Shown in pieces: positions 20,494 to 50,341 of a stretch of DNA of 64,000 bases (within the stretch, counting starts at the first letter, position 1; each line of letters begins with the position of its first letter). The notes under the pieces were generated by a model that saw only the letters and a program-made list of their open reading frames with translations, searched no databases and was not told where the DNA came from. The translations under genes and the position numbers were made by a program. The stretch comes from Bacteroidota bacterium. GTDB lineage: Bacteria; Bacteroidota; Ignavibacteria; UBA10030; UBA6906. The stretch is taken from contig JBFLYO010000016.1 of the NCBI GenBank assembly GCA_040756745.1, positions 8,655 to 72,654 on the forward strand. Direction: 5' to 3'.

Positions 20494-21269
20494 GATGCCG
20501 CTTCCAGGTAGCCGATGGCATGGGAAATTACCGCGGCTTCCTTCTTCAGGATATCGATCAGCCGGCTGATGACCTCGGCCTTCCGTTTCCGTTCGGACTG
20601 GATTGCAGTCATCAATGCGGCGGCCACCTTCCCCCGGTGGTCGCGGATCGGAACGGAGACCGCACAGAGGTCGGGCTTGTATTCGGCGTCGGCGATCGCG
20701 TAGCCTTGGCGGTTCACCTCCTTCAACCGCTTTTTCAGCCGTAAAACACTCGTGATGGTCTTCGGGGTAAACTTCTTCAGGCCGCTCCGCTCGATGATGC
20801 GATCGAGCTGCTCGGGGGGCACATCGGCGATCAGCACCTGCCCGGATGCCGTCGCGTGAACGGGCGAGCGCTGCCCGAGGCGGGCGACCATCGACCAGAT
20901 CTCCGGCGTGTCGGCACGGTCGATGATAATGACCTCTGAGCTGTCCAGGATGGCAAGGTAATAGCTCTCGCGCGTTTCATGGGCCATGCGCACCAGGTGC
21001 GGATGAACCACGGTTTTCAGATCGATCTTCTCCAGCGCCGCATTCCCCCAGTCGAGCAGCTTCATTCCCAGTCGGAAGATCTTCCTGTCGTGGTCCTGGA
21101 TGACGATCGCATGCTGTTCCAGTGCGGCGAGGATGCGGAACAGGGAGCTCTTGGGGATGGCAGTCTGCCGGGAGATCTCGGCCAGCGAAAAGCCGGTGTG
21201 CGAGGCGGCGAGAATCTCGATCACCTGCACCGTTCGGTGAATGGCGGGGACGGAGTATTCTCTGTGCAT
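20490..21269 (-). CDS. IclR-family transcriptional regulator
   Basis: 259 aa. N-terminal wHTH (SLAEISRQTAIPKSSLFRILAALE) and a C-terminal IclR effector-binding domain. Its stop overlaps the next gene's ATG (ATGA), so it appears to head the 21-kb operon. Confidence 0.85.
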   Translation of the reverse strand: MHREYSVPAIHRTVQVIEILAASHTGFSLAEISRQTAIPKSSLFRILAALEQHAIVIQDHDRKIFRLGMKLLDWGNAALEKIDLKTVVHPHLVRMAHETRESYYLAILDSSEVIIIDRADTPEIWSMVARLGQRSPVHATASGQVLIADVPPEQLDRIIERSGLKKFTPKTITSVLRLKKRLKEVNRQGYAIADAEYKPDLCAVSVPIRDHRGKVAAALMTAIQSERKRKAEVISRLIDILKKEAAVISHAIGYLEAAS

Positions 21270-31400: not shown

Positions 31401-31517
31401 AGCTCGATCTCCATTGCTACCGTTGATCCTCTCCGCGGATAAGGAATCAGCAGCGTCAGGGCCGGTGTCTTGATAAAGTCGCGGCGGTTCATGAGTTTGC
31501 TATCGATTCGGAATTAA

Positions 31518-31536
31518 TGGTTCGCCGTTAATCGGA
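31518..31536. repeat. 19-nt motif GGTTCGCCGTTAATCGGAT (copy 1 of a direct repeat)
   Basis: An identical motif with one substitution occurs at 33892..33910. This copy also has an imperfect inverted partner ATCCGATTACTTGTGAACCG at ~31576..31595. Confidence 0.5.
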
Positions 31537-31620
31537 TAGCCGGGTTAACAGATAACTGTTGACTGTTAAGATCGATCCGATTACTTGTGAACCGCGATAG
31601 ATGAATACAAGATGGCAACA

Positions 31621-34123: not shown

Positions 34124-35701
34124 CTAATAGCTCACCACCACCTCAGCCCTCCCCTTCATCCGAATCTCCGCATCCGCATACCTGCTCTGCTCTACTCGAA
34201 TCGTCCTGAAGCGCACCGACTTTCCGTTCGCGGTCACCTTCGACGGCAGCCCGCCCTCCGGCAACAACAGGTGAAGATGAACGACTGCGGGGCCCGTGAT
34301 CGTCATCGCAATCTGCCGCGTCGATGGATCGTGTTCATATGTGTACGAAACCGCCGCACCAGACGCTGCATACCCAACGGTGACCTCGGCATTGCGCGAG
34401 CCCGCTGCCGGCCATCGCGGCGCCAGCGAAATTTCCCTCAGGAGCGATCCGCGATCCACTACACCGGCAAGCCCTTCCATCAGTGCCCACAGCATCGCAG
34501 ACGATCCCCACCCGTCGGTGGGGGAGGCCTCAGGGCTCGTGCTTGTCTCCACCGTGGACGGGCGCCCGTCGGGGAAATACCAGAGGTACGTTTCATTGTT
34601 CCGCGTGAGCTCTTCGTACTTCAGGAGCTGCTTTACCCCGTACTCTTCGAACCCATGTTCGAACGCAGCGCGCGCGAGCTCCCCGCCAACGAGCGGCATA
34701 ATGCCGCCGTTGCAGTAGGCCCCGGGGACGAGTTTCGCTTCTCCGAAGGCCCCGGCGGGGAACGGGGGATCGATGCTGAACCAGGGGGCGAACGCGCCGG
34801 TGGTCCGGCCGCGTGACTCGTACTCCCGGATGATCGATACCGCTATGGCATGTGTCGACATTCCCCGGTTGATCCCCATCGGGTTGCTGAGACTGAGCTG
34901 CGCTGTCTCGTCGACCCCGGGCACCGTGCGCGGCGTGAGCGGGACATGGTGAGTATAGAATCTTCCGTTGAAGCACACCCGGTTCGCGCGCGTGCGTAAC
35001 GCCGCCGCCTCGTCCAGCCAGTATCGGGCCCGCTTCCTGTTCTTCAAGACTTCATGGCACCGCGCCATCAGCAGGAACGCTTCGTACGTACCGGAATTGT
35101 CGCCGTGCATGATCCCCCAGAACGTCTGATCGTCGATCTGAAAGTTCAGCCAATGGTGCCTCCCGGCGGTGTAGTCAAAGTCCCACGTGTCGATGGTCAA
35201 TGCTCGCTTAACCAGCCGCGTCTTCCGGTCCCACCGCCAGGGGTCGCTCACCGAGTACGCAAGACCCTTCTCCATGTGCGGCATCATCCGTCGCAGCCAG
35301 CGATCGTCGCCGGTCGCCTGCCACGTCAGGTAGACCGCCTTGACGAAGCGAAATTCGACGTCGGCCTCAACGGGGACGCGGATGTACCGGGCCCAGTTCT
35401 CTCGCTCCGCAGGGGGCTTTTCGGGGAGCGTCCCAAAATTGTCGAAGAGCCACCCCTGCGCCGACTGTGTCTCGGCGAAGTGGTCGATGGCCCCGTTCAG
35501 CTCCTTCTCCCAGTACCGACCAGCCCTGACGATATCCGAATGGTCCCGCAACCAGATGCTCGGGGAATCCGGGGAGCGGAAGCCCCTCAGGCGCTTTCCC
35601 AGCATGGTGTACTCGACGACATCGGCCGCAAGAAAGTCGCGGATGCGCGGCACGAGCGAGTCGAGGCGAGGGGCATCGCTGCGTAAGGTCGTTTCGCTCA
35701 C
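34124..35701 (-). CDS. cytoplasmic hypothetical protein, possible (alpha/alpha)6 glycoside hydrolase (GH63/GH125/GDE-like)
   Basis: 525 aa, no signal peptide. W-x-RD motif (SIWLRDHSDIV) and helix-pair composition suggest a six-hairpin glycosidase. Weak call. Confidence 0.3.
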   Translation of the reverse strand: MSETTLRSDAPRLDSLVPRIRDFLAADVVEYTMLGKRLRGFRSPDSPSIWLRDHSDIVRAGRYWEKELNGAIDHFAETQSAQGWLFDNFGTLPEKPPAERENWARYIRVPVEADVEFRFVKAVYLTWQATGDDRWLRRMMPHMEKGLAYSVSDPWRWDRKTRLVKRALTIDTWDFDYTAGRHHWLNFQIDDQTFWGIMHGDNSGTYEAFLLMARCHEVLKNRKRARYWLDEAAALRTRANRVCFNGRFYTHHVPLTPRTVPGVDETAQLSLSNPMGINRGMSTHAIAVSIIREYESRGRTTGAFAPWFSIDPPFPAGAFGEAKLVPGAYCNGGIMPLVGGELARAAFEHGFEEYGVKQLLKYEELTRNNETYLWYFPDGRPSTVETSTSPEASPTDGWGSSAMLWALMEGLAGVVDRGSLLREISLAPRWPAAGSRNAEVTVGYAASGAAVSYTYEHDPSTRQIAMTITGPAVVHLHLLLPEGGLPSKVTANGKSVRFRTIRVEQSRYADAEIRMKGRAEVVVSY

Positions 35702-36583: not shown

Positions 36584-37372
36584 TCACTCCTTCGCCACGA
36601 TGGGGAAGAGAGGTCCGTGGAACTCCTCGCCTGGCTTCAGATTGGCACGATCGCCCACGATATGCGGGAGCTTTTTATATGTCGTCCCGGCTGGCATAAA
36701 GATGGTGACCATGGCGCGACGAGCGGTGGAGGTGACGTTGGGACCGGCGTAGTGGAACGTCAGGCCGTTATGGAATGTACAGCTCCCGGGTTTCAGCTCA
36801 ACGGCCACCGGCTTCACGCCGCGGTACGACGGCGGCAGGAGCGCCAGGGGGCCGTCAGCCGTCGTGTTCCCCAGATCGACGGGGTCAAGCGGACCCACCT
36901 TATGCGATCCCGGCACGAACCACATGCACCCCCGCTCCACCGTCACATCATCGAGTGCCATCCAGCAAGAGAGCCCCCCTGGTTCGTTCATCGGCCAGTA
37001 CACGGTGTCCTGATGCCAGGCCGTGGGCTTGCTGTCCTCCGGATACTTAATAAGAGCCTGGTCATGCCAGAGACGAACATGACGCGAACGGGTCAGACGT
37101 CGCGCGATCTCCGCGACGCGCGGGTGACGGGCATACTCCTCCAGCACCGGGTATCGCTCCCACAGGTTGACCATCTGCAGGAACACTTTGGTGTATCCCT
37201 CGTCGGTCCGGGGCCCAAGGTTCAACTGGAATTTGTTCTTGTCTTCGACCGCCCGGTCGAGCGCTGCGCGCAGGATCTCGACCTCCTCCATCGTGAGAAC
37301 GTCGTCAAGCCGGACGTAGCCGTTCTCCTCGTAGAAGCGGACCTCTTCTTCACTGATCGGGTACGCGTTCAT
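36584..37372 (-). CDS. phytanoyl-CoA dioxygenase (PhyH) family Fe(II)/2-oxoglutarate oxygenase, second copy
   Basis: 262 aa. WHQDTVYWP (H-x-D) and a distal His (TFHNG). Only distantly related to its neighbour, so not a recent duplicate. Confidence 0.75.
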   Translation of the reverse strand: MNAYPISEEEVRFYEENGYVRLDDVLTMEEVEILRAALDRAVEDKNKFQLNLGPRTDEGYTKVFLQMVNLWERYPVLEEYARHPRVAEIARRLTRSRHVRLWHDQALIKYPEDSKPTAWHQDTVYWPMNEPGGLSCWMALDDVTVERGCMWFVPGSHKVGPLDPVDLGNTTADGPLALLPPSYRGVKPVAVELKPGSCTFHNGLTFHYAGPNVTSTARRAMVTIFMPAGTTYKKLPHIVGDRANLKPGEEFHGPLFPIVAKE

Positions 37373-39518
37373 GCATCCTCCACATGTACTGGGGGTCGAT
37401 GTGTGGTTCGTCCTTTCCGTGCTTTTCCATTAAGGCGATCTTGCGGGAGAGCAGGTCGCCGAAATTCTCTCCGTAGCAGTGGAGCGTCTCGCCGATCGTC
37501 GAAACGGGCATGAAGTCCGTACGGCTCGACCGCCAGAGGTCGAGAAGATCCCGCGCATTGGCCAGCTCGTCCTCCACCATCGCGTCACAGAGCGATCTGA
37601 AGTGCGTCCTGTCCTTGGGATCGGTCGCGCCGCAGTATCCGTGGACCGACTCGATCCAGGCAACCATGTTGCGCAGCGTCCTGTAAAACGCGCGCGCAGC
37701 CCTCAGTCGGTCATGCAGGTCGGCAAATACGGGGGGTGTGCTGTTCTTCGAGCTCAGTGTGTCGACGCACTGTTCGATGGCCGACGTGAGCGGTGCGAGA
37801 ACTTTTCTATCAATCGTGCGCCGCTTTTCTCCCGCCTCCTCGACCGTAAGGAAATTCCACATCATGTCATTGTTCAGGTCGACACGGGCCGGGTTGTTGA
37901 ACGTCGCAAGGAGATACTCTTCATAATAGCGGCGATCCTGTTCAGGAATTGCGTCAATGTCGGGCACGAAGGGTCTGACCCAGAGCCGGAACCACGGGAA
38001 ACCGAATGTGCTCATGGGAACGCCTGACGGGAATCCTCGGACGGCGCTGTCTGATCGGTTCCAGAGGTCGAGCAGTTCCGCAGCGCCTGAAACGCCTCCC
38101 CAACGTTCCGACCATATGCGGAGGACGTCGTCGATCGACCGCTCCGGCGTCAACTGGAACGCCCGGACCACTTCTCTATTGATATCGAACGGCGCCAATG
38201 ATGCCGGTGTACCTCCTGTGAGCACGAAGTCACCGCCCCGCGCACGGAGAGCGCCCAGTCGTTCATGGACCAGCCGCGGGTACGGGACGCCGAGAACGTT
38301 GTTGTCGCCGACCTCAGTTTTGGCATGGGTTTCCGCCCCGGCCCTCCGCAGCATATCGTTCTCCTGATCCAACCCGCCTCCTTCGAAATAGCCGAAGTCG
38401 CCTGCGTCGATCCCGTCCCCCATCCCCCGAATGATCTCCGGTCGTTCGTCCCGGAACGAGCCGAGGTCGCAGACCAGGCGGAACGCCGGGTTGGCCCGGC
38501 GGCCCTCGTCGCGCAGGAGGCGGAAATACTTGAGAACGTTGCCGGCCGCGGCGCGTGCGATCTCCGCATGGCTCTTCCATTCGCGGATCAGGTAGGGACC
38601 ACCATTTCTCCCCGCATACAGCGCACTCACGAACTCGAAGCCCGACCCGCTGTCGTTCGTCCAGAGATAGATGAACCCGATCTCGGGAATCTCTGCCATG
38701 ATCGCTCGGACCAGTTCCCGGTAATGCTCCTGCACCGCCGGATGGGCCATCGCGAGCGTGTAGCGGGGACGGAGCGTTTCCCGCGGATGGTCCACCCGTG
38801 CCCCACGCAGGTATCCGTACTCCTCCCAGAATTCCTCCGGCATTGAGCGCGGAGAGTTGATGTGCAGACCGGGAACGAGTCCGTACCGGAGAGCGCTCTG
38901 TGCCGTCTCTTTCAGGAATTTGAGATTCGCAGCAAGATACCCGGATGGGTAATACCCGCGGAGGAGGGTGCTATCGACGAACTGATCGAGGTCGGGGCTG
39001 TAGTCGTAGAACCAGTGATAGACATCCCCCGGTGGACTCGACTCGAACGGACGGGCAACGCCCAGTCCGTTCACGGTCATGTGCGTGAATCCCTGCGCGG
39101 CAAGCTGCCGGCAATACCCTTGCCGGTCGAAATGCCGCGCATGCCGCAAACTCCCGACCAGAAAGTCACTCAGATTCCTGAGCCAGCGAAACGACGCCGG
39201 TCGTCTCTTCTCCTCGCCGAACTCCTCCGCGCTCCGTTCTCCCCACTCCTCCGTAGCCAGGCGCATCGCAGCGTAGAGCAGCGCGCCTTGCGACGCCCCA
39301 ATCGCAATGCCCCCGTTGTGTGAGACGGTAAACGAATACCAGGGGGCCTCTTCCCCTTCGAGCCGGAGCGTCAGGACAGGGGCCTCCCCCGCCGTGCTGA
39401 CGCGGGCGCGGGGGCAGCAGGTACGAAGGAGCTCCTCAGCGACTGTTTGCTCTGCAATGGTGGCGCCCTGGCGGAGACGGATGGCGCGGATCTCCCTCAG
39501 GATCTCTCGTACGGTCAT
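37350..39518 (-). CDS. hypothetical protein (722 aa, cytoplasmic)
   Basis: Long ORF with sensible codon usage and operon context, 14 nt after the MetE-like gene. No recognisable motif and no signal peptide. Confidence 0.5.
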   Translation of the reverse strand: MTVREILREIRAIRLRQGATIAEQTVAEELLRTCCPRARVSTAGEAPVLTLRLEGEEAPWYSFTVSHNGGIAIGASQGALLYAAMRLATEEWGERSAEEFGEEKRRPASFRWLRNLSDFLVGSLRHARHFDRQGYCRQLAAQGFTHMTVNGLGVARPFESSPPGDVYHWFYDYSPDLDQFVDSTLLRGYYPSGYLAANLKFLKETAQSALRYGLVPGLHINSPRSMPEEFWEEYGYLRGARVDHPRETLRPRYTLAMAHPAVQEHYRELVRAIMAEIPEIGFIYLWTNDSGSGFEFVSALYAGRNGGPYLIREWKSHAEIARAAAGNVLKYFRLLRDEGRRANPAFRLVCDLGSFRDERPEIIRGMGDGIDAGDFGYFEGGGLDQENDMLRRAGAETHAKTEVGDNNVLGVPYPRLVHERLGALRARGGDFVLTGGTPASLAPFDINREVVRAFQLTPERSIDDVLRIWSERWGGVSGAAELLDLWNRSDSAVRGFPSGVPMSTFGFPWFRLWVRPFVPDIDAIPEQDRRYYEEYLLATFNNPARVDLNNDMMWNFLTVEEAGEKRRTIDRKVLAPLTSAIEQCVDTLSSKNSTPPVFADLHDRLRAARAFYRTLRNMVAWIESVHGYCGATDPKDRTHFRSLCDAMVEDELANARDLLDLWRSSRTDFMPVSTIGETLHCYGENFGDLLSRKIALMEKHGKDEPHIDPQYMWRMHERVPDQ

Positions 39519-39532
39519 GGAACCGGTCCGCG

Positions 39533-40567
39533 TCAGTCCCCTTTCCCTCCCAGCTCGTTCCGGACGATCCGGGTTCCTTCCACCATGGCCTTCAGTTTGG
39601 CGAACGCCCTCGCTCGCGGCATGAACTTCATGCCGCAGTCGGGACTGATGTACATTTTTTCGGCAGGGATGTGCTCCAGTGCCTGCCGGATGCGGCGCAT
39701 AACGACGTCCGGAGTTTCCACCGCTTCGTCTTTCACATCGATGACACCGACGACGATTTCCTTGTCGGTAGGGTACTTTGTGAAAAGCTCCAGTCCGACC
39801 CCGTCCGACACGGCGAACTCCATGCTGAGCTGGTGCGACCGGGTTTCGAGAATCGCCGGAAAGAGCTCGTCATACTGTCCTTTGAAGAGGCGCTTGAGCT
39901 GGTAGTTGCCGTAGCAGACGTGCAATGCGATCTTCGCTTTTACGCCGTCCACGAGGCGGTTGAAGGACTCCACGAGCCACGGCATGTCCTGCGGATACCC
40001 GACCCAGACCGGCTCATCGATCTGGATGAAATCGCACCCCGCTGCGACGAGGCCCCGTAACTCGGCATTGAGGATTGCGGCCAGATCGAACACCAGTTCC
40101 TTGTCCGACGGATAGTACTCGTTTGTCGCGCGTTTCGCCAGCATCTGGGGACCGGTCACGCACACCTTCGTCCACGCCGTGGCATGCGCCTTCAGGAAGC
40201 TGAAGTGCTTGTCCATCCCCAGCGACCCCTTCGACCGCACCTTGTCGCCGACTATGGGGTCGAGCATCTGGATGCTTGGATCCAGGTTGCCGATCGGCTT
40301 CATCTTCCCTGCCATGTCGAACCCGTGGATTCGCATGGAGAAGAAGTTCACCATTGTCTCGCGCCGGAGTTCGCCATCGGTGATGATGTCAACGCCCGCC
40401 CGCTCCTGGTCAAGGATGGCCGACCTTACGGCGTTGTCGTGCGCTTCTTCCACCTGCGAGGGGGTCAGGACTCCATTCACTCCGAGCGTGCGGACCTGTT
40501 CAAGCCACGCGGGGAGGGAGTAGCTACCGATGACGGTGGTGGGGAGGAGAGGGAAAGAATCGGCCAT
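39533..40567 (-). CDS. cobalamin-independent methionine synthase (MetE) C-terminal-domain-like / UROD-MetE fold methyltransferase family protein
   Basis: 344 aa. N-terminal TTVIGSYSLPAWL and the His/Cys/Glu zinc-ligand pattern (HVCYGN...SPDCGMK) typical of the stand-alone MetE C-terminal domain family. Confidence 0.7.
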   Translation of the reverse strand: MADSFPLLPTTVIGSYSLPAWLEQVRTLGVNGVLTPSQVEEAHDNAVRSAILDQERAGVDIITDGELRRETMVNFFSMRIHGFDMAGKMKPIGNLDPSIQMLDPIVGDKVRSKGSLGMDKHFSFLKAHATAWTKVCVTGPQMLAKRATNEYYPSDKELVFDLAAILNAELRGLVAAGCDFIQIDEPVWVGYPQDMPWLVESFNRLVDGVKAKIALHVCYGNYQLKRLFKGQYDELFPAILETRSHQLSMEFAVSDGVGLELFTKYPTDKEIVVGVIDVKDEAVETPDVVMRRIRQALEHIPAEKMYISPDCGMKFMPRARAFAKLKAMVEGTRIVRNELGGKGD

Positions 40568-40626
40568 TGCGTTCTCAACGTGAATTGCGTCCGGCGGAAT
40601 TCAGATATCTGATATCAGAATTCGAA

Positions 40627-40671
40627 GGGGGGTAACCACCTTCGACAACCCACGCAAGGCGATTACCCCCC
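40627..40671. terminator. stem-loop GGGGGGTAA ... TTACCCCCC between the PorV-like and MetE-like genes
   Basis: 9-bp GC-rich stem enclosing a 27-nt loop. It is followed by TTT on the plus strand and by a U-containing tract (UUCGAAUUCUG) on the minus strand. Adjacent is a TCAGAT/ATCTGA repeat palindrome at 40597..40623. Confidence 0.3.
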
Positions 40672-40706
40672 TTTGCTGTTGGTCGGGACAGCAGTACGGC
40701 AGGTCG

Positions 40707-41732
40707 CTACTTCATGCCGAGCGAGAGGGTGATTCTGTGGACCGAATCAACAAGATCCATCTTCGTGAAGGCGTAGTCAACACGGATCGAGTAGTCGGAC
40801 AACTTCGTCATGAACCCCGCCCCCGCCGTGAAGCTCTCGACGGTCGTTTTGATTGCCGGCGAGAAACTGTTGCCGCCGTCGTCGACCCCCGAGTAGTTGA
40901 ACTTGTAGCCGCCGCGGACGGAGATCATCTCCATGAAGGTGTACTCGCCTCCCACGAAGTAGTACTGTAGGCCGTCCTGTGGCTTTACCGCGTCAACGGT
41001 GACCATCAAGGAATTCATGTCATCCGTGAGCGGTGTCATCGATGTACCGATGCTGAACGTCAGCGGGATGGGAGCGGCAAAATCGTAGAACTTCATGTCG
41101 CTCCCGAGGTTGCTGAGTCGCGCACCGATGTTCCACCCCAGAATGCCGATGCTGTACACCGATCCGAAGTCGAACGCAACTGCCGTGGCCGTCTTATCAT
41201 CGATCTTCTCGCTGATGTACTTTGCCGAGAGGCCGAGCGAGAGCTGGTCGGTGATGGCACGCGCATAGCTGACCTGGAGGACCATGTCGCGGTAGTCATA
41301 CGTGTCGCTCGTCACCTTGTCGATCTCGAGTGCCCGCAGTTCAGCGCTTCCGCCGGGATACACATCGCGGTCTGCGGGAATCCCCGAGAGGCCGAACGTC
41401 ATGAAGCCGAGACCGATCGTCCCGACATCCTCGAGGTTGTAAGATATCGAGGCCGCCTGCTGATTCAGATCGGCAAACCACTTGTTGTACGTGAACGCCG
41501 CCTGCGCGCGCTGGTCGGTGGCCAGCGTAATGCCGGCGGGATTCCAGTACATATTTGTCACGTCTCCCGTCAGTGAGGTGACAGCCGAGCCGAGGCCAAC
41601 CTGCCGCGCACCGACGCCGATCTTCAGGAACGCGGCCGAATTGATGCCGGCCTTCCTGTTCTGGGCGTCGGACGTGCCAGCCACCAGCGTCACCATCAGG
41701 AGGATCGCCGTCAGAACATACATTCGTTTCAT
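40707..41732 (-). CDS. PorV/PorQ-family outer-membrane beta-barrel protein (type IX secretion associated)
   Basis: ORF 40707..41750 trimmed to Met7 (MKRMYVLTAILLMVTLVAGTSDAQ signal). The N-terminal motif AAFLKIGVGARQVGLGSA matches the PorV/PorQ family signature. Beta-barrel-like alternating pattern, C-terminal aromatic-rich end. Confidence 0.6.
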   Translation of the reverse strand: MKRMYVLTAILLMVTLVAGTSDAQNRKAGINSAAFLKIGVGARQVGLGSAVTSLTGDVTNMYWNPAGITLATDQRAQAAFTYNKWFADLNQQAASISYNLEDVGTIGLGFMTFGLSGIPADRDVYPGGSAELRALEIDKVTSDTYDYRDMVLQVSYARAITDQLSLGLSAKYISEKIDDKTATAVAFDFGSVYSIGILGWNIGARLSNLGSDMKFYDFAAPIPLTFSIGTSMTPLTDDMNSLMVTVDAVKPQDGLQYYFVGGEYTFMEMISVRGGYKFNYSGVDDGGNSFSPAIKTTVESFTAGAGFMTKLSDYSIRVDYAFTKMDLVDSVHRITLSLGMK

Positions 41733-41760
41733 AGGACTGTCCTCTATCATAGATGGTCAG

Positions 41761-44289
41761 TTATCGGAGAATGGAGAAGTAGCCGGTCTTCTTGCCGCCG
41801 GTGGGGGATTCCACCACGTAGATATAGAGACCGCTGGCGACTTCGATTCCGTCCTTCGAGAACATATCCCAGAACGTCGCACCCAGGCTCGGGTCGCTCG
41901 ACGAGAAATCAAACTGGTCGATGATCTGGCCTGAAACGTCCAGGATCGTGATTTTGCACTGCGGTGGCAGGTTATAGAAGAGCAGCTTGTGATCGTACAC
42001 ATTGGAGAAGTTGTCGTGCAACGCCGCCCGCTTATAGGGGTTCGGCCGCACACCGACATTCGCAACGTCCCCCGCTGCGGCCAGCGCCGAATAGACAACC
42101 TGCACGGCGCCGATGTCCTTCTTTCCGGCCGCCGTCTTGGGGTAGTTCGGATTGTTGGGTGCGAACGGGAAGGTTTTCTGCCACAGACCGTTGGCGCCGT
42201 CCCGGTTGGTTGAATGCGTCTCCATCCGGGCCGTGGTCTCGCCGGCGGGGCCTGTATATGTCCCCTCCTTGTACGCAGAGACGTAGTACCAGTACGAGAA
42301 CCCGAGAACGACATCCTTGTCCTCATAGAGATACTTGTATCCGGGTGTCGTCGTCTTCGGGAACGTCGCCAGATCCGCTTTCGGAACCACCTTCACAAGT
42401 TCCCACGTTCCCCACGTATCGGGTTGATAGAGTCCCTTCAACGAAGTCCCTGCGACCTCGGCAAAAGCGTCGAATTTCGGATTCACGGGCTTCTTCAACG
42501 AGGTGATGTCCGCACCCACCGTCATCTGCTCCTGATACCGGTCGGCGAGGCGCATCCCTTCGTCGAGCCACGCCTTCTTCTTGAAGTTCGACGATTTCCA
42601 GATCTTGTACCCCTGGAACTCGGGATCGGCTTCGGCGCGGTCATCCCACTCAACCCTCACGGACTTCGTCAGTGTATTGGAGACCTTCATATCGGGCAAC
42701 GCAGGCAGGACCGGGACGCTCGCCGAGCCGTTGGCATATACGTACCGCGCAGCGCGGACGGCCTTCTGGACCCCCTCCAGCCGATAGCCGCCGACGATTG
42801 CCAGGACGAATGTCACCGAGGAATCCTTCTCAATGCGGACCGGGCCGATGCCGCTATACAGGTCGCCGTTGAAGTCATGCGCGAAGTTGTACCCGGTCGT
42901 CCATTTGCCCCAGCCCGTAGGATAGCCGGTACCGTCTTCCAGCGGCGTCTGGTCAAACGTGTTCAGCGTCTTCTGGTCTCCGTTCGGCTGACCGGGAGAG
43001 GCGAGGGGCACCCAGGTTGTGACGTCGCCCGTCGTTCCGGATGCAAAGAACGCGGGGTTCGGGCTCAGGTCGAGCTGGGCAAGCGTGCGCGATGATCCGC
43101 CGTTCCTCGCAAACTCGCCGATGCCGACGGTGAACATCTCCTTCGGGTCGGTGAAGCGCCCGGCAAGCGAACCTCCGGAACCTGCGGACAGGTACCAGCC
43201 CTGTTGCCCTCCTGTGCCGACGGGATGCGTTCCGAAGATCGTGTTCCGCGTTGGCAGCGCGTTTGTGAGCTGTGTCGGATCAGTGGGGAGCCCGCCCGAT
43301 TTCGCACCGAGCCAGTCCCACCCGATCCAAATGTCGGTATAGGCGCGCTTCGTCACGCCGTTGTACCCCATATTGAAGTTGCCAGCCGTTGGCGACTGGG
43401 TGCGGGCGCCCGCGTAGTAGGCAACGAACCCCCACGGGTTGCCGCTCGGATCGGGATCGCCGACCCATCCACCCATGCGGGTGAATTTCTCGCCGATCAG
43501 GTTCTCATTCCGGCCGCCGCCGAGATAGCTGCTGACAGACATGAAGATCTCGCCCGACATGACCAGGCTGATGGCCTGGATCGCTGGATCCGCGAGGGCT
43601 GCATCGGCTGCACCGTCCAGGTTCATGTCGCGCTGGCCGGTGTTCTTGAATTCGATCTCGAGGATCACGAAGTCGTTGAAGTTGTTCCAGTTCGGCCCTG
43701 TCCAGGCGTGCGCTCTGATCTTCACGTCGCACCCGGTGTTCGTGGGCCAACCCGCTTCATACACCGCATGCTGTCGCCGGGTCCCGTCCACAAAGTAGGG
43801 TTCGACGCTGTACTTCCGCGGCGCTCCGTCGCCGAGGACACCCGGCTTGTAGGTCACCTGACCCCAGTTGCCGGTGGCAGGTGCCGCGACGCCCTGCTTG
43901 GTTGGGTTAAAGTTAGAGTCCGCATGGAACACTTGTGCGTGCATATAGTGGGACCAGAAGATGGTCCAATGGAATGCCGCGGGCCAGTGGGCGTTTGGCG
44001 TCGACCATCCGCGGTCGAAGTTGCCGAACCGGATGAACTGCCGCGCACCCTGTGTGGGATACGTCGCTCCCTCACCGTAATACGGCCCGAATGCTTGCGG
44101 GAGGAATGAATCCCAGAGGTCCCCCGCCTGCAGGACGCCTGCGCCGGGGAAACCAATCACCGAATTCGCGGGCGTGCCGGGTTGTGCGAGCGCTGCGCAC
44201 GGCAACAGGAGGACGAGAGCGACCGCCAGTGCCGCCGCGAGCGTCGTAATGTTGGATCGGTTCATATCATTGCTCCTTGTTTTCAACAT
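41761..44289 (-). CDS. large secreted protein with type IX secretion (Por_Secre_tail-like) C-terminal domain
   Basis: 842 aa with a signal peptide (…MNRSNITTLAAALAVALVLLLPCAALAQ) and a Gly/Thr/Asn-rich, beta-rich body. The C-terminal ~80 aa end in GLYIYVVESPTGGKKTGYFSILR, resembling T9SS sorting domains. Confidence 0.55.
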   Translation of the reverse strand: MLKTRSNDMNRSNITTLAAALAVALVLLLPCAALAQPGTPANSVIGFPGAGVLQAGDLWDSFLPQAFGPYYGEGATYPTQGARQFIRFGNFDRGWSTPNAHWPAAFHWTIFWSHYMHAQVFHADSNFNPTKQGVAAPATGNWGQVTYKPGVLGDGAPRKYSVEPYFVDGTRRQHAVYEAGWPTNTGCDVKIRAHAWTGPNWNNFNDFVILEIEFKNTGQRDMNLDGAADAALADPAIQAISLVMSGEIFMSVSSYLGGGRNENLIGEKFTRMGGWVGDPDPSGNPWGFVAYYAGARTQSPTAGNFNMGYNGVTKRAYTDIWIGWDWLGAKSGGLPTDPTQLTNALPTRNTIFGTHPVGTGGQQGWYLSAGSGGSLAGRFTDPKEMFTVGIGEFARNGGSSRTLAQLDLSPNPAFFASGTTGDVTTWVPLASPGQPNGDQKTLNTFDQTPLEDGTGYPTGWGKWTTGYNFAHDFNGDLYSGIGPVRIEKDSSVTFVLAIVGGYRLEGVQKAVRAARYVYANGSASVPVLPALPDMKVSNTLTKSVRVEWDDRAEADPEFQGYKIWKSSNFKKKAWLDEGMRLADRYQEQMTVGADITSLKKPVNPKFDAFAEVAGTSLKGLYQPDTWGTWELVKVVPKADLATFPKTTTPGYKYLYEDKDVVLGFSYWYYVSAYKEGTYTGPAGETTARMETHSTNRDGANGLWQKTFPFAPNNPNYPKTAAGKKDIGAVQVVYSALAAAGDVANVGVRPNPYKRAALHDNFSNVYDHKLLFYNLPPQCKITILDVSGQIIDQFDFSSSDPSLGATFWDMFSKDGIEVASGLYIYVVESPTGGKKTGYFSILR

Positions 44290-44299
44290 TCGATCGGCA

Positions 44300-47200
44300 T
44301 TAGAAGGTCAGCCGTGCGCCAAAATAGAATTCACGCGGGAAGCCGTAGAAATAGCTGCCGTCTGCACCCACCGGCCGGACGTACGGGCCTGTCGGGTTGG
44401 GTGAGCCCGCAGCATTCGACTTCTCCCAGAGGAACTGCGTGTCAAGATTGTCGTACCCGATGATGTTCGTCCAATTAAAGGCGTTGATCACCTCGGCAAA
44501 CACCGAGAGCCGGACTCCCTCGAATTCGAACCCCTTCTCCAGCCTGAGATCCACCTGCTGGTTCCAGGGTCCTTCCGCAAACTCGCGGCCGATCGTGCGC
44601 GCATCGGCGGTTGTGTATTTCGGATAGAAGAAGCCGCTCTGGAATGTCCCGATGGATGACAGGACGATGTCTTCGGGGAATCCCAGTATGAGCTGGTACG
44701 TGATCCGGTGCGTACGGTCATATCCACCGGTCAGCGTGCTTGCGCCGCCGACGACATCGGTCTGGATCTTGTTGTAGAAGTTGATGTCATCAATCGGGAG
44801 GCCCCCCGCCAAACGTGCGCTATCGCCATTTGCGGTGGAGAAGGAGGTCTGCATCTTCGGATCCAGTCCTGCGAACGCCGATGCCTTGATATAGCTGTAC
44901 GTGTACGTGGCGCGCCCCGAGACCGTCAGGATGCCGTCAAAGAAGCTCTGCCGTTGCCCCTCCAGCGTCACTTCCACGCCTCGGGAATCCGCATATCCGG
45001 CCGAGAAGCCGACGTAGTAGTTCGTTCCATACGGCCCGCTGCGCGGGATCACGTTGTACGAATAGTAGCCGTAATCCTCGATGTCGCGCAGGTACGCGTT
45101 GAAGTTCAATGCAAACTTCGGCACGAACTCCCACTGGATCCCGAGTTCGTAGTTGTTCGACTTGTAAGGCTTCTGGAGCACACTCGGGTTGTTCGGGAGC
45201 GATGTGTTCCCGAAGTTGTTGTAGTTAGCATAGACCCGTGAGTAGGGCGGGGGGAGCGAATTCCGCGAGTACGAGAAGTACATCGCTGCAACGTCGGAGA
45301 TCGGGTGGGAAACGCCGATCCTCGGCGATAAGAAGACGTAGGTATCAACCTTTTTGCTCCTCTGCGTCTGCCGCTGGGTGACCGTGATCGGCACACCGGT
45401 CAGGGTGTCGACTGATACCTGGACGTCTCGATACGGCGCAAAATAATTGGTGAACTCGAGCGCATCAGGATTCCAGGTGTCCACACGCGCGCCCAGGTTG
45501 ATGATGAGCCCCGCGTATTCCATCCGGTCCTGGATGTACCCGCCGAATTCTGTCGGCTTGGGGTTCCACTGCTCGATATAGTACTGTTGCTTCGCATCTA
45601 CCGCTCCGAGGAACGACGCTCGGCGCAGCATGTCCACGTTGTGGAACCTCGCCTGTCCCCCAACCTGCAACCGGTGGTTTGCTGTGAGCTGATTTGTGTA
45701 ATCCCCCTTAACGGTGAAGACCGAGTACAGCAGGTTCTCGTAAAAGAATCCGGGTCGCGCAAGCCTGGCAGTGGTTCCGCCTGCATTGAACGGTGTGCTC
45801 GTCGAGCTCGCTTGCTCATCCTGATTGCGGAAGAATTTGGTCAGGTCAGTATTGTTGATGTACTTATTAGCCTGAGCGAGGGTTTCCAGCGTGATGAAGT
45901 CGCCGTCCTCGTCCAGCGCGCAGAATCCGTCGCCGTTGTCGTCGCTATAGCCCGTGCGCGTTTGATTTGACGTTATGCTGGCCTGTACTTCGTAGAAGGA
46001 CGAAGGGTCAAGGATGTGCGTGAGCTTGAGGCTGCCAATGATGTCCGCACCGTCGTTCTTTGGCACCCCCTCCAGGTAGAATCGGGCGCTCTCCTGATAC
46101 CCCCTGTTCTTCCATCCGAAAAACCGCCCGCGATCGGTAAGTATGCCAAGACCCGTGACTTTGATGTCGCCGGTGATGTTGTACTGGGTCTTCAGGGTCA
46201 GGCCGATTTCACGTGCGAATTCGTTCGGCAGCCGGCCGTACGAGTTGAAGTACTTCCCCGTAAAGAAGAAGCCCCAGTCCTGCATGATATCACCGCTCAA
46301 CGATCCCTCGAACTCCACGGTTGGCTTCTCGTTGAGATACTTCCCATTAGCGTATGTATATCGCCCCAGCCGGGCGCTGTCCGCAGGGAGCGTCGTGCCA
46401 AAGGGGAGGCCCGCAGCCCTTCGTGCCCTCAACGAGTCCACGCGGTATTGCAGGTCTGACTTCTCTTTGAAGTAAAGGAAGTCGTTCCAGTAGACGTCTG
46501 GACCATTATAGCGGAGCCCTTTGAACTGGCTGACCCGGCCTGTAATGCTGCCGGTCAGCGGCCCGCGCCCTTCTCGCAGGGCATAGTTCACGAGGCCCGC
46601 CGTGGCCGACGAATACTCGGCTCCCACAGCGCCCGTATTCACGCTTACCTGCTCCACAGAGTTGAAGCTGAAATCGCCGATCTTGCTCAGCTCGCTTCCG
46701 TGGAAGCGGGGTACGCTGTTGTATACCAGATACGGCGTATGGGCCATATCTCCGGCATATGTATAGAACTGGTCGCTGACGTCAACACCGTCCACGATGG
46801 TCTTGGTCTCATTGATGCGGCCGCCGCGGATGAAGCCGTTGTACGCGCTCGCCGACGTTGCGATCAGTCCTACGGATGTGCGGATAGGGAGCGAGGAGAT
46901 GTCGTCCGAGGTTATTGTGGACTTGGATGCCGTGAGGCTTCTATCCACAAGGGGTCGTTCTGCCTGAATGACGATTTCCGCCAGACCAACCGCTTCCGAC
47001 TGGAGCGTGAAATCCAAGGTCAGGATCTGGTCAGATTCGATCAGCACGCCGACGACAACCTGCGGCGCGTACCCGACCGCCGAGGCGCGCACACGATACG
47101 TCCCCGGCGGGACATTCAGAATGAAATAGTTTCCGGAAGGATCCGTTGCCGCACCGAGCGTCGTGCCGACAACCACGACGTTCACCCCCGGAACAGCAGC

Positions 47201-47317
47201 CCCGTCGGAGCTCTTGACCGCCCCCGTGATCTTTCCGTTGCCGGCCACTGCAACCTGCGTCAGCGCAGCGGAGGCCAACAGAACGATCGCCAGGAATCTG
47301 TAGCAGCGTTGGGTCAT
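44300..47317 (-). CDS. TonB-dependent outer-membrane receptor, SusC/RagA-like with CarboxypepD_reg N-terminal domain
   Basis: ORF 44300..47581 trimmed to Met89 (MTQRCYRFLAIVLLASAALTQVAVAG signal). AAGGAGG Shine-Dalgarno sits 5 nt upstream. CarboxypepD_reg domain (GKITGAV...GNYFILNVPPGTYRVRASAVGYAP), plug region, long beta-barrel, C-terminal ...YFGARLTF. Confidence 0.8.
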   Translation of the reverse strand: MTQRCYRFLAIVLLASAALTQVAVAGNGKITGAVKSSDGAAVPGVNVVVVGTTLGAATDPSGNYFILNVPPGTYRVRASAVGYAPQVVVGVLIESDQILTLDFTLQSEAVGLAEIVIQAERPLVDRSLTASKSTITSDDISSLPIRTSVGLIATSASAYNGFIRGGRINETKTIVDGVDVSDQFYTYAGDMAHTPYLVYNSVPRFHGSELSKIGDFSFNSVEQVSVNTGAVGAEYSSATAGLVNYALREGRGPLTGSITGRVSQFKGLRYNGPDVYWNDFLYFKEKSDLQYRVDSLRARRAAGLPFGTTLPADSARLGRYTYANGKYLNEKPTVEFEGSLSGDIMQDWGFFFTGKYFNSYGRLPNEFAREIGLTLKTQYNITGDIKVTGLGILTDRGRFFGWKNRGYQESARFYLEGVPKNDGADIIGSLKLTHILDPSSFYEVQASITSNQTRTGYSDDNGDGFCALDEDGDFITLETLAQANKYINNTDLTKFFRNQDEQASSTSTPFNAGGTTARLARPGFFYENLLYSVFTVKGDYTNQLTANHRLQVGGQARFHNVDMLRRASFLGAVDAKQQYYIEQWNPKPTEFGGYIQDRMEYAGLIINLGARVDTWNPDALEFTNYFAPYRDVQVSVDTLTGVPITVTQRQTQRSKKVDTYVFLSPRIGVSHPISDVAAMYFSYSRNSLPPPYSRVYANYNNFGNTSLPNNPSVLQKPYKSNNYELGIQWEFVPKFALNFNAYLRDIEDYGYYSYNVIPRSGPYGTNYYVGFSAGYADSRGVEVTLEGQRQSFFDGILTVSGRATYTYSYIKASAFAGLDPKMQTSFSTANGDSARLAGGLPIDDINFYNKIQTDVVGGASTLTGGYDRTHRITYQLILGFPEDIVLSSIGTFQSGFFYPKYTTADARTIGREFAEGPWNQQVDLRLEKGFEFEGVRLSVFAEVINAFNWTNIIGYDNLDTQFLWEKSNAAGSPNPTGPYVRPVGADGSYFYGFPREFYFGARLTF

Positions 47318-47683
47318 ATCGTTCCTCCTTCGATCATGAATTGAGTAGGGTGGGTGGATGGATTGACGTGATGTAACGGATGCATCGTACACTCGTGCGG
47401 TCAGCGCGGCATGGCTTCCCGTCGGGGGAGACCGCATGCTGCGGTGACGGAATGCGAACAGGAATGAGAACTGAGTCTGGAACCTGTGCGAACGCCCGGG
47501 CAGGAGATATTCACCCGGCGTTCCACTAATAGAATGGTGTTTTATCACCGGAAAAATAGCACATTGCCGATGTTTTGTCAAGCGCTTTCTTTCCCCGGAG
47601 CGTTGCGGATGAACCGGGCATTCTCTACTTTACTCCCGACGCGCTGTGAAACCCGATTCCACTATTGAAATGAGTGAGGCAGG

Positions 47684-48499
47684 ATGCGCATTCTCGTCGC
47701 GCGCTCGAAATGGGAGTTCGACACACTCCCCCTCGATGACTTTCTACGGAAGATATCGGGCGCCGGTTTCGACGCGTCCGACATCCACCTCCCTTCACTG
47801 AAGGAGTCCCCGGAAGAAACCGCCGCCCTGCACCACCGCTACCGCCTTTCTCTTATGGCCCTGATTACCAGCGAGGGGAAAACGCCAGAGGAGCATTGCC
47901 GTTCGCTCGAGGAACGGCTCGCCCTGGCCGCCCGGTGCAGCGCGGGGCATGTGAACTGCCATACGGGAAGGGACATTTTTACACCAGAGGAGAATATCAC
48001 AATTTTCAGGGCCGCCGCAGATCTTGCTCGCCGTTACGGGCTGCCCATTTCACACGAAACTCACCGCGGACGCGCCCTGTTTAGCCTTCCGGCAACACGC
48101 GATCTTTTGCGGACACTCCCGGAACTCAGGATAACCGCAGATTTTTCACACTGGTGCTGTGTGCATGAATCGCTACTCCAGGACCAGGAAGACGCTCTGG
48201 CACTCGCCATCGAGCGCTCTGATTACATCCACGCCCGGATCGGCCACGCGGAAGGACCCCAGGTCAATGACCCCCGTGCCCCTGAATGGGACACAGAGCG
48301 CAATATCCACCTGGAGTGGTGGAAGCGGATCGCGCGGGAGCACGTAAAACGCGGCTCGGAACGCCTGTTCGTCTGTCCCGAATTCGGCCCCGCTCCCTAC
48401 ATGCCGCAACTGCCGCATACGCGGCAGCCGGTCACGGATCTGTGGGAAGTCACGCTGTATATGAAAGACCTTCTTCGTAAAGCACTGGAGGAGAATTAA
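47684..48499 (+). CDS. sugar phosphate isomerase/epimerase (xylose-isomerase-like TIM barrel) family protein
   Basis: 271 aa. TIM-barrel family pattern with His/Glu/Asp metal ligands (ISHETH, HARIGH). Confidence 0.65.
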   Translation: MRILVARSKWEFDTLPLDDFLRKISGAGFDASDIHLPSLKESPEETAALHHRYRLSLMALITSEGKTPEEHCRSLEERLALAARCSAGHVNCHTGRDIFTPEENITIFRAAADLARRYGLPISHETHRGRALFSLPATRDLLRTLPELRITADFSHWCCVHESLLQDQEDALALAIERSDYIHARIGHAEGPQVNDPRAPEWDTERNIHLEWWKRIAREHVKRGSERLFVCPEFGPAPYMPQLPHTRQPVTDLWEVTLYMKDLLRKALEEN

Positions 48500-48517
48500 C
48501 CACAGAGGCACAGAGAA

Positions 48518-48646
48518 GATTGAGATCGAGATTGAGATTAAGGAAAAGGGGTGGAGCAGGTTAAGGTCAAGGGGGCCTTCGCCCGCCCTCAACCTTAACC
48601 TTGGCCTTGACCTCAATCTTGATCTCAATCTTGATCTCTATTGAGG
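48518..48646. repeat. hexamer-repeat palindromic intergenic element (GATTGAGATCGAGATTGAGATTAAGG ... CCTCAATCTTGATCTCAATCTTGATCTC)
   Basis: Left arm (GAGATT/GAGATC units) and right arm (AATCTC/GATCTC units) are reverse complements. The inner part holds nested GGTTAAGG/CCTTAACC and GGTCAAGG/CCTTGACC pairs. Fills the spacer between the TIM-barrel and cupin genes. Confidence 0.6.
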
Positions 48647-48650
48647 TTCT

Positions 48651-49100
48651 ATGATTATTGCCGATCTTGCAACGATTTCGGGACGCACGTACCCCGCGAG
48701 GAGGAGGACCCAGAACCTCGTAGGAGGAGCATCCCCGATCCAGGCAAATAATTTCTCCATGGGGATGGTCACGCTCGAGGCGCACGGCGGACAGGTGCCG
48801 TGGCACAATCAGGAACAGGAAGAGGTGTATCTGATCCTGAACGGCACCGGCGAAATGTGCCTTGGAGAGGAGCGGTTCACCGTAAGGTCTGGTCAGGCGG
48901 TGTTTATTCCGCCAAAGGTATTTCACCAGCTCACGAACACCGGACCGACTCCCATGACCATGCTCTATTGTTACGGGCCGGCGGGTGATGTCGCCCACTG
49001 GCGGCAGGAGCTGGAAGGGACGCTGCCACGGGCCGGCATCGAGGCGCCGCCTCTCCCCTACGGCGCAGCGCCACAATGCACCGATGCGCCCGCTCGGTAG
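48651..49100 (+). CDS. cupin-domain protein
   Basis: 149 aa. Two-motif cupin signature (G-x5-PWHNQEQEEVYLILNG ... G-x5-FIPPKVFHQLTN). Confidence 0.7.
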   Translation: MIIADLATISGRTYPARRRTQNLVGGASPIQANNFSMGMVTLEAHGGQVPWHNQEQEEVYLILNGTGEMCLGEERFTVRSGQAVFIPPKVFHQLTNTGPTPMTMLYCYGPAGDVAHWRQELEGTLPRAGIEAPPLPYGAAPQCTDAPAR

Positions 49101-49171
49101 TTTTCCTTGCGGCGGTTCCATGAATCGTCGTTTCCCGTGTTCACCCAGAACCGACCACCGGAGATGTATTC

Positions 49172-50341
49172 ATGCATACAATGAAGACCCATACCGTCGG
49201 CATTATCATGAACGGCGTGACCGGCCGTATGGGAATGAACCAACACCTGCTTCGGTCAGTCGCTGCGATTATCGCACAGGGGGGAGTCAGGGTCGGCGAT
49301 ACAGAGCGCATCATGCCCGACCCCATCCTTGTGGGACGCAATGCCGAGAAACTGGAAGACCTCGCAGCCCGCGCCGGAATCTCCCGCTGGACCACGGATC
49401 TGCGCGCCGTGCTGAACGACCCCAACACCAGCGTCTACTTCGATGCACAGACAACGAGCCTCCGCGCGCCGGCAGTTCGCGCCGCCATCGACGCGGGAAA
49501 GCACATCTACTGTGAAAAGCCCACCGCGCTCACAACCGCCGATGCGCTGGAACTCTACACCAGGGCAAAGACCCGCGGCGTGAAGCATGGCGTGGTGCAG
49601 GACAAGCTCTGGCTCCCCGGGCTCATCAAGCTCAAGACGCTGATCGATACGGGGTTCTTTGGCCGCATTCTCTCCGTCCGCGGTGAGTTCGGCTACTGGG
49701 TCTTCGAGGGGAGCCCCATCCCCTCCCAGCGCCCCTCCTGGAACTACCGCAAGGAGGACGGCGGCGGCGTTATCTTCGACATGCTCTGTCACTGGCGCTA
49801 CGTGCTGGACAACCTGTTCGGCAGGGTGACCGCGGTGTCGTGTCTCGGCGCAACCCATATCCCCACACGATGGGACGAAGCGGGAAAGCCCTACAGCTGC
49901 ACTGCCGACGACGCCGCCTATGCGACATTTACCCTTGAAAACGGGGTCGTCGCACAGTTCAACTCATCCTGGACCGTCCGGGTACGTCGCGACGACCTGC
50001 TGACCCTGCAGGTCGACGGCACGCGCGGTTCCGCGGTCGCGGGGCTCCGCGACTGCCTCATCCAGCCCTACGAATCGACCCCGCGCCCCATCTGGAATCC
50101 CGACATCCCGAACCCGATCAACTTCTATTCCGACTGGGTACAGGTGCAGGCACAACAGGAATATGAGAACGCGTTCAAAGTACAGTGGGAGCTCTTCCTT
50201 CGCCATGTGGTGAAGGACGAGAAGTTTCAATGGGACTTGCTTGAAGGCGCCAAGGGAGTCCAGCTCGCCGAGAAGGGGATGGAGTCATGGGAAAAGCGCG
50301 CCTGGGTGGATGTCCCCGACCTGATCTGTACCAATTCCTGA
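49172..50341 (+). CDS. Gfo/Idh/MocA family oxidoreductase
   Basis: 389 aa. N-terminal Rossmann [13 protein letters not shown] and the EKP motif (IYCEKPTAL). Confidence 0.85.

Follow-up and report, generated by a model that had tools for sequence, protein, structure and literature searches.

Within the 64,000-nucleotide stretch of DNA analysed here (hereafter the window; contig JBFLYO010000016.1 of a Bacteroidota bacterium placed in the Ignavibacteria), three consecutive minus-strand open reading frames (ORFs) encode a TonB-dependent receptor, a secreted protein of 842 amino acids (aa) and an outer-membrane barrel of the PorV/PorQ family, in that order. The order of these genes is conserved in related genomes, and the secreted protein ends in a special C-terminal domain (CTD) which strictly co-occurs, in this family and in proteins with unrelated heads, with a PorV-like gene and a receptor gene. 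The three genes probably encode one outer-membrane uptake module. They lie as follows:

44300..47317, minus strand: TonB-dependent receptor, 1005 aa.
41761..44289, minus strand: 842-aa secreted protein (834 aa in the NCBI call, AB1428_08415).
40707..41750, minus strand: PorV/PorQ-family outer-membrane barrel, 347 aa (341 aa in the NCBI call).

The receptor ORF as called mechanically is longer (44300..47581), and the ATG at 47317 is the start which supplies a signal peptide. The intergenic spacing is 10 nt at both junctions, and these short gaps suggest that the trio is co-transcribed.

The 842-aa family has about 120 close homologues. A survey in which one genome per species was scanned yielded 78 loci. 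They come from Ignavibacteria, Kryptonia, Rhodothermales (among them Rubrivirga and a Salinibacter metagenome-assembled genome, MAG) and a few other Bacteroidota MAGs, with identities of 34-66%, the taxonomic range being that given by the MAG labels. The gene immediately upstream of that for the 842-aa protein is a receptor homologue in 61 of 70 loci, the one immediately downstream is a PorV-like homologue in 60 of 69, and both are kept in 55 of the 63 loci for which both flanks were available. The three-gene arrangement pointed out by the initial annotation, which had been made from the letters of the window, is consequently a conserved unit.

Variation in copy number was also seen. One locus (L010:4922-18583) carries two full trios in tandem, which shows that duplication involves the entire unit; the second copy shares 39-56% identity with the proteins of the window. 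In one Ignavibacteria subgroup (L030, L033, L044 and probably L026) a second 842-aa paralogue with the special CTD lies a few kb downstream of the cluster formed by the trio, a MetE-like gene and a GH138-like gene; this paralogue has no PorV-like gene of its own, so that one barrel may serve two cargos.

The 842-aa protein begins with a Sec signal peptide with an A-x-A/Q site, 'MNRSNITTLAAALAVALVLLLPCAALA/QPG', as read from the sequence, and its N-terminus contains no canonical lipobox. At full length it has no Pfam or NCBIfam match, and the Gly/Thr-richness ascribed to it at first is only mild (G 11.2%, T 7.8%). An AlphaFold2 model built with 34 homologues is confident overall (predicted local distance difference test, pLDDT, 85.5; predicted template modelling score, pTM, 0.87) and gives the order signal helix (residues 11-33, matching the signal region), all-β head, helix, FN3-like stalk with an insertion, and seven-strand C-terminal sandwich. 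The predicted domains are:

42730..44181, minus strand: head domain, residues ~37-520 (in the model ~45-520), all-β and family-specific, pLDDT mostly >85.
42064..42717, minus strand: FN3-like stalk with an insertion, residues ~525-742, matched by Foldseek to FN3 tandems.
41764..42063, minus strand: putative C-terminal sorting/anchor domain, residues 743-842, resembling type IX secretion system (T9SS) CTDs.

The stalk carries the motifs 'VEWDDRAE…FQGYKIWKSS…YWYYVSAYKEG'. When the whole model was compared with the PDB by Foldseek, PorZ was the best match and PorU ranked 12th of the 18 matches at E<=0.001, the remainder being mostly FN3 tandems.

The C-terminal domain, whose strands in the model occupy residues 746-840 at the extreme C-terminus, carries the motif 'PNPY…DHK..F.NLP…ITILDVSGQII…WDMFSKDG.EVASGLYIY…G.FSILR'. 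It resembles PorZ (5m11) and PorU (6za2) in Foldseek, the family profile matches the PorU CTD of 6za2 (E 0.0018), and PorZ, PorU and FlgD_ig are the other top matches of the tail in the profile scans. The type B sorting domain (PF13585/TIGR04131) is not reached, the CHU_C score being 13.7 bits vs a cut-off of 27. In addition, the CTD is the most conserved region of the family, 45-85% identical to that of the window protein and 1.3-1.76 times the identity of the head, which is unlike what is expected of a discarded signal. The sequence and the model indicate a CTD-type domain of a distinct subclass, 'VVPNPY…GKFAVIK', which falls below the curated T9SS cut-offs; Pfam and NCBIfam model neither this special CTD nor the heads that it is attached to.

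A natural exchange of tails is found within the family itself. Six of 34 family members pass the type-A models and bear an ordinary PF18962 tail, 'QNYPNPFNP…SGVYFYRL…K.LL.K'; their tails are only 14-23% identical to that of the window protein, whereas their heads are 38-51% identical. When tail type was cross-tabulated with gene context over the loci available as DNA, an adjoining PorV-like gene was present in 51 of 64 loci with the special tail (an under-count, since ORF starts were called mechanically) and in 0 of 7 with the ordinary tail, these numbers counting sequences and not independent events. None of the ordinary-tail members with a readable gene context has a PorV-like neighbour; they are P0082, P0084, P0080, P0088, P0092, L022, L050 and P0043, the last being a long PF18962 variant judged from the gene list only.

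The special CTD is not confined to the 842-aa family. A profile search of 1.84 billion representatives gave 24,836 proteins at E<=0.001, and of the best 150 about 49 align solely with the final ~110 profile positions, always at their own extreme C-terminus. These tail-only proteins, named 'hypothetical protein' by NCBI and assigned to Bacteroidota, candidate division KSB1 and Fodinibius, share the consensus '(R/K)VVPNPY…W(E/D)…I.F..LP..CTIRI(F/Y)T..G.LV.TI.H…W(D/N)L.S…VA.G(I/L)YIY.V…G.K.GKFA(V/I)I(K/R)', and a hidden Markov model (HMM) built only from tails with non-homologous heads finds the window protein at E 5e-22. Their genes recur in the same setting: receptor, cargo and PorV-like gene for P0324 (L086); receptor, a 323-aa gene, cargo and PorV-like gene for P0326 (L087); IclR, receptor, cargo and PorV-like gene for P0329 (L169); and cargo followed by a PorV-like gene, at contig ends, for P0319 and P0347. 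The receptors and barrels of these sister modules are recognised by the HMMs of the 842-aa loci with E values of 1e-37 to 1e-91. Moreover, when metagenomes were scanned for the tail motif, at least 600 stretches matched and 590 of these were confirmed. Neighbours were counted in the best 80 of these loci, selected by the CTD alone and dominated by one large head superfamily: none of the 80 bears a head of the 842-aa type, 72 of 76 have the start of a PorV-like ORF no more than 600 nt downstream (for the most part no more than 50 nt), 32 of 36 have the end of a receptor ORF just upstream, and 31 of 36 have both. On the PorV-like and receptor counts the special CTD was rejected as a general secretion tag unrelated to its neighbours, a reading which a single protein, P0316, had raised.

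Comparison of the 842-aa family with the large sister family by hhalign (A1 vs A8) gave a probability of 99.9 and E 1.8e-36 over residues ~460-842, that is, the helix, the FN3-like stalk and the CTD, and no homology between the head of the 842-aa family and the sister-module heads. At least four head classes were distinguished by BLAST, and the head of the large sister family has no sequence relatives in the PDB. It is rather likely that the window trio is one family in a large modular class made up of a receptor, a protein of variable head, FN3 stalk and CTD, and a dedicated PorV-type carrier or anchor. The alternative architecture suggested by the initial annotation thus recurs with unrelated heads and stands on firmer ground than when it was proposed. 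Sister modules also occur in other company: after the module of P0324 (L086:9285-13322) come a GWxTD-domain protein and an ExbB-ExbD-ExbD-TonB set, a combination that follows the module in no other fetched locus, and that of P0326 (L087:1-13818) is surrounded by peptidases of the S51 and M14 families and by ordinary Por_Secre_tail proteins. The latter context suggests peptide uptake as a further task of the module class, which is thus not necessarily glycan-specific.

The following mechanism would account for this arrangement. The receptor would be a TonB-powered importer, and the 842-aa protein would be exported by Sec and then recognised through its special CTD, the cognate partner of which, unlike that of the generic type-A signal, would be the adjoining PorV-family barrel. 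The barrel would collect the 842-aa protein at the translocon and subsequently keep it on the cell surface, in the manner modelled on PorV-PorU, PorQ-PorZ and PorP/SprF with type-B cargo, while the FN3-like stalk would raise the head over the membrane, next to the receptor. In this position the head would capture, and possibly cut, a particular glycan and feed it to the receptor, and the imported fragments would be finished by cytoplasmic enzymes (the GH138/GH67-like protein, the 525-aa protein described below and others), in many genomes under IclR. In this scheme we infer the T9SS dependence, the retention by the barrel, the contact with the receptor, the ligand binding and the substrate identity. 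Several published observations are compatible with it. Inside the SprA translocon the CTD of a substrate attaches to the extracellular loops of PorV, after which carrier and substrate are extracted as a pair (PMC10994853); cognate PorV-like barrels have been proposed to keep uncleaved CTDs, as in PorU-PorV and PorZ-PorQ, and genes for type-B cargo cluster with those of their PorP/SprF partners (PMC10202324); and T9SS is probably present in Ignavibacteriota and Rhodothermota (PMC11285876). Furthermore, ordinary type-A cargo is encoded on contigs which carry modules, an indirect sign that these organisms run T9SS.

A number of points weigh against this reading. No T9SS core gene was found within the window. 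The last 100 aa of the 842-aa protein score 19.5 bits with TIGR04183 vs a cut-off of 23, and PF18962 was reported neither for the full protein nor for the isolated tail, so that of the 'T9SS-type C-terminal tail' first described the homology to the PorU and PorZ CTDs and the seven strands held, but not the agreement with the curated profiles. The paralogues with the canonical CTD appear to form one clade, and the contrast between the two tails may reflect few evolutionary events. In the stretches covered, a few family members (L031, L049) are accompanied by neither a receptor gene nor a PorV-like gene, and the same holds for P0316, which bears the special CTD. No carbohydrate-binding or catalytic fold was recognised for the head by Pfam, NCBIfam or Foldseek against the PDB. 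Finally, PorV is structurally a relative of FadL, and a channel role of the barrel is compatible with its sequence.

The head is the part on which the best-surviving rival explanation turns. The confident model brought to light no carbohydrate-binding fold, for which the initial annotation had proposed a structure prediction; the family profile of the head matches nothing in the PDB, and Foldseek gave only a weak match to the N-terminal β-sandwich of TxGH116 (E 3e-3, TM 0.2). A glycan-binding role of the head is therefore presumptive. According to the rival, secretion and anchoring proceed as above, but the 842-aa protein would be an enzyme, a new glycoside hydrolase or lyase at the surface or set free from it, which cuts the polymer and neither binds nor covers the receptor, the latter simply importing the products. 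The weak GH116 match speaks for this, and so do the many polar residues that are invariant or nearly so in the head (R158, Y177, D188, N205, D206, D221, H174, E178, H194 and R503) and the type-A-tailed paralogues, which stand alone, enzyme-like, as T9SS cargo among GH28, GH47 and GH94 genes. However, no catalytic motif or fold was recognised, an enzyme that is released would have no need of its own carrier or of a CTD better conserved than the head, and a receptor gene strictly adjoins in several families of heads, which points to a stoichiometric partner, so we regard the enzyme explanation as unlikely.

The second rival concerns the barrel, which would be a channel of FadL type whose substrate is hydrophobic or amphipathic, the CTD being merely an Ig-like module and T9SS having no part in it. 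The structural kinship just mentioned, the sub-threshold score of the barrel with FadL/Toluene_X (PF03349; 22.4 bits over part of the model vs a gathering score of 29.7) and the position of the CTD below the curated T9SS cut-offs are in its favour. Against it, the barrel scores 192.2 bits with NF033709 (PorV_fam) over residues 38-344, twice the cut-off of 90. In PDB searches the PorV of Flavobacterium johnsoniae (6h3i_F) was the sole solved relative, with E 2.6e-8 when the single sequence was the query and 1.1e-17 when it was the family profile, and the family profile found no FadL or TodX structure. In addition, the tail matches the CTDs of PorU and PorZ by both profile and fold, an ordinary type-A tail coincides with loss of the barrel gene, and the context is one of sugars and not of lipids or aromatics. 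The FadL explanation is accordingly very improbable. As a generic FadL- or OmpA-like porin the barrel was rejected on the NF033709 score and the PorV match, and its assignment to the PorV family in the initial annotation was borne out, but its length is 347 and not 344 aa. The barrel remains below all the equivalogs tried (PorV NF033710, 76.1 vs 250; PorQ NF033711, 84.7 vs 220; PorV2 NF052325, 83.1 vs 325) and, as judged from these profiles, is a module-specific paralogue within the PorV family.

The receptor comprises a signal peptide, a CarboxypepD_reg extension (residues 30-117; PF13620, 69 bits), a TonB-box-like 'EIVIQAE' read directly from the sequence, a probable plug and a large barrel (TonB_dep_Rec_b-barrel PF00593, 66.3 bits vs a gathering score of 27), so that its description as a TonB-dependent receptor with a CarboxypepD_reg domain was correct. 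The plug family PF07715 was not reported for the window receptor at E<=0.01, and is present on the module receptors in L086, L087 and L169. 'SusC-like', the other term applied to it, fits in part: the N-terminal extension and plug resemble those of RagA/SusC, with the receptor-family profile A3 matching RagA (6sli_B) over residues 2-225, that is, extension and plug only, at E 2e-6, but the SusC/RagA model TIGR04056 gives 62.9 bits vs a cut-off of 368.25, over residues 29-147 only, and sequence searches of the PDB with the receptor found no match to a SusC or RagA barrel. Membership in the SusC family was rejected on the TIGR04056 result, and by these matches the receptor is best described as a TonB-dependent importer with a SusC/RagA-like front end and not as a SusC.

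It is the receptor that the third rival makes central, the trio being an export or assembly device in which the receptor, or the receptor together with the barrel, moves the 842-aa protein to the surface without T9SS. A receptor-type protein of Myxococcus, Oar, reportedly has a role in surface export, the architecture of CarboxypepD_reg plus a large barrel is typical of Oar-like proteins, and the three genes always stand together. On the other hand, the tail shares homology with T9SS CTDs, as does the barrel with a T9SS carrier, the same type of head occurs with an ordinary T9SS tail and without a receptor, and the linked genes are those of catabolic enzymes and IclR, as in uptake loci; the export explanation is thus a shade less probable even than a FadL-type channel. 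That the three are simply unrelated outer-membrane genes which happen to adjoin is negligibly probable in view of the 55 of 63 loci across several classes, the 31 of 36 metagenome loci selected by the CTD and the tandem duplication of the whole trio in L010.

An uptake module built in this way has parallels in several known systems. The accepted hallmark of nutrient capture in Bacteroidota is the SusC/SusD pair, by which utilisation loci are located in genomes. As in SusC/SusD (RagA/RagB), a TonB transporter with a CarboxypepD_reg-type extension and a plug is encoded right before a surface partner, and the pair is set among catabolic enzymes and a regulator. Unlike SusC/SusD, the receptor fails TIGR04056, the partner is a β-rich head on an FN3 stalk with a CTD and not a lipoprotein of SusD fold, and a third gene, that of the PorV-family barrel, is obligatory in the module. 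Every gene of the window was scanned for SusD families and no match was found, as the initial annotation had stated; since the receptor does not belong to the SusC family, however, its phrase 'instead of a SusD partner' holds as an analogy and not as a replacement within a SusC/SusD locus. By analogy, the module would work like SusC/SusD but be built from T9SS parts.

With PorV-PorU and PorQ-PorZ the module shares the pairing of a PorV-family barrel with a CTD protein proposed to remain uncleaved and barrel-bound (PMC10202324), and it is through the CTD that PorZ and PorU match the 842-aa protein structurally. Those pairs, however, belong to the housekeeping equipment of the secretion machine and have no TonB receptor gene as a neighbour, whereas the barrel of the module reaches none of the PorV, PorQ and PorV2 equivalogs and its cargo has a head unrelated to PorU and PorZ. 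The type-B cargos with PorP/SprF, such as SprB/SprF, are similar in that a cargo-specific partner, proposed as an anchor, is encoded adjacent to a cargo with a matched CTD class (PMC10202324), but the CTD of the module is not of type B, its barrel is of the PorV and not the PorP/SprF family, and type-B pairs serve adhesins and motility and not a TonB receptor. In BamG-BamH of the Bacteroidota β-barrel assembly machinery (BAM), the loops of a 14-strand FadL/PorV-like barrel hold a surface protein in a larger complex (PMC12578637); this system differs in serving outer-membrane protein assembly and in having no CTD-type domain and no TonB receptor. Classical polysaccharide utilisation loci (PULs) that include T9SS-secreted enzymes, such as the chitin locus of F. 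johnsoniae, likewise link T9SS cargo to a TonB-receptor locus for glycan uptake, but they keep the SusC/SusD pair and use the general PorV, and neither a dedicated PorV paralogue nor a special CTD class is known to us from them.

In the literature searched, no paper was found which describes a trio of TonB receptor, CTD protein and PorV-like barrel. The three-gene unit, with varied surface proteins, is present in hundreds of mostly uncultured relatives of the Bacteroidota. To our knowledge, many related lineages have few or no SusC/SusD pairs. As a tentative generalisation, which goes further than the module itself and is held with less confidence, the special CTD and its PorV-family partner may constitute a third class of T9SS sorting and anchoring which builds receptor-associated surface complexes and corresponds to SusC/SusD among those branches of the FCB (Fibrobacteres-Chlorobi-Bacteroidetes) group that lie outside the Bacteroidia, namely Ignavibacteria, Kryptonia, Rhodothermia, Balneolia, KSB1 and others. 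In it, the barrel would serve as a lasting anchor docked next to the TonB receptor, and interchangeable heads would set the specificity. If this is true, uptake loci in bacteria of soil, sediment and hot springs become recognisable by the combination of special CTD, PorV paralogue and receptor, T9SS helps to assemble import machinery beyond exporting enzymes and adhesins, and the matching of CTD class to carrier can be tested through the natural swap in which the same head bears a special or an ordinary CTD. The analysis also flags orphan families, namely the heads, a 722-aa GH138-like enzyme and a 525-aa protein.

The surroundings of the trio in the window are those of glycan catabolism, which agrees with the polysaccharide-utilisation setting supposed at the outset. 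Tandem susC/susD genes, which define a PUL in the strict sense, are not found in the window. Carbohydrate-active enzymes are present, with GH38, GH47, GH15-like and GH138-like proteins, and there are also BNR proteins, a heparinase-II/III-like protein, rhamnose-type catabolic genes, sugar kinases and isomerases and two sodium:solute symporters. Four further genes of the window are linked to the trio in relatives:

39533..40567, minus strand: short MetE-like gene, 344 aa (PF01717, 149 bits; NF003317, 310 bits vs a cut-off of 406).
37350..39518, minus strand: glycosidase-like orphan, 722 aa, no Pfam or NCBIfam match, AlphaFold2 pLDDT 82.
34124..35701, minus strand: orphan 525-aa protein without a signal peptide.
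20490..21269, minus strand: IclR-type regulator (PF01614 and PF09339), 19 kb from the trio.

The MetE-like gene, with the catalytic domain of cobalamin-independent methionine synthase, is found in 29 loci at 65-82% identity and always comes right after the PorV-like gene in those of Ignavibacteria and Kryptonia; it may be a housekeeping gene or may provide a step of methyl transfer in the pathway. The model of the 722-aa protein, encoded two genes downstream of the trio, matches GH138 BP0997 best in Foldseek (E 8e-13, TM 0.55), followed by GH20, GH67, GH84, GH89 and GH115, all of which are three-domain glycosidases. It has at least 894 homologues, lacks a signal peptide and occurs in 36 of the 78 loci, including those of Rhodothermales, so it probably represents an uncharacterised family of cytoplasmic glycosidases linked to the trio across classes. 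The 525-aa protein, found in 39 of the 78 loci and directly after the PorV-like gene in Rhodothermales, has a mean column identity of 64% over 16 sequences and no sequence match in Pfam, NCBIfam or the PDB. Homologues of the IclR regulator are syntenic in 17 loci; in Rhodothermales they immediately precede the receptor, and in Kryptonia they are likewise found upstream of it.

As for signals around the transcription unit, two features were noted, the G+C content of the window being about 60%:

40597..40673, minus strand: double hairpin in the 139-nt gap which separates the PorV-like stop from the MetE-like gene (RNA fold -54.1 kcal/mol, z -3.8).
47553..47581, minus strand: sigma-70-like promoter match, TTGACA-17-TATTTT (10/12), ~236 nt 5' of the receptor ATG.

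None of 200 shuffles was as stable as the hairpin, which has no U-tract and is possibly a terminator or processing site ending the three-gene unit. The promoter-like site is a consensus match only, and such matches in the region are no more numerous than expected by chance. The ~236-nt receptor leader matches no Rfam family, and no tRNA was found in the window. Two exact copies of AWTAGTGGAA (47521..47530 and 47657..47666, minus strand), the sole exact copies in the window, flank the promoter match; as a shared operator the repeat was rejected and is probably none, because it is not conserved upstream of 57 related receptors.

Two minor observations concern the rest of the window. The 1.5 kb at 30118..31620, between two minus-strand genes, contains a single plus-strand ORF (30120..31442, with a low third-position G+C of 0.61) with no Pfam hit, matches no Rfam family, and may be non-coding or a decayed gene. 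There are also two sets of GFO/IDH/MocA and xylose-isomerase-like TIM genes, one at 17592..20493 on the minus strand with DUF4432 and the other at 47684..50341 on the plus strand, which may hint at an oxidative (3-keto) route of sugar processing, and the latter set adjoins the receptor in the closest relatives as well (L011, L015, L021 and L040).

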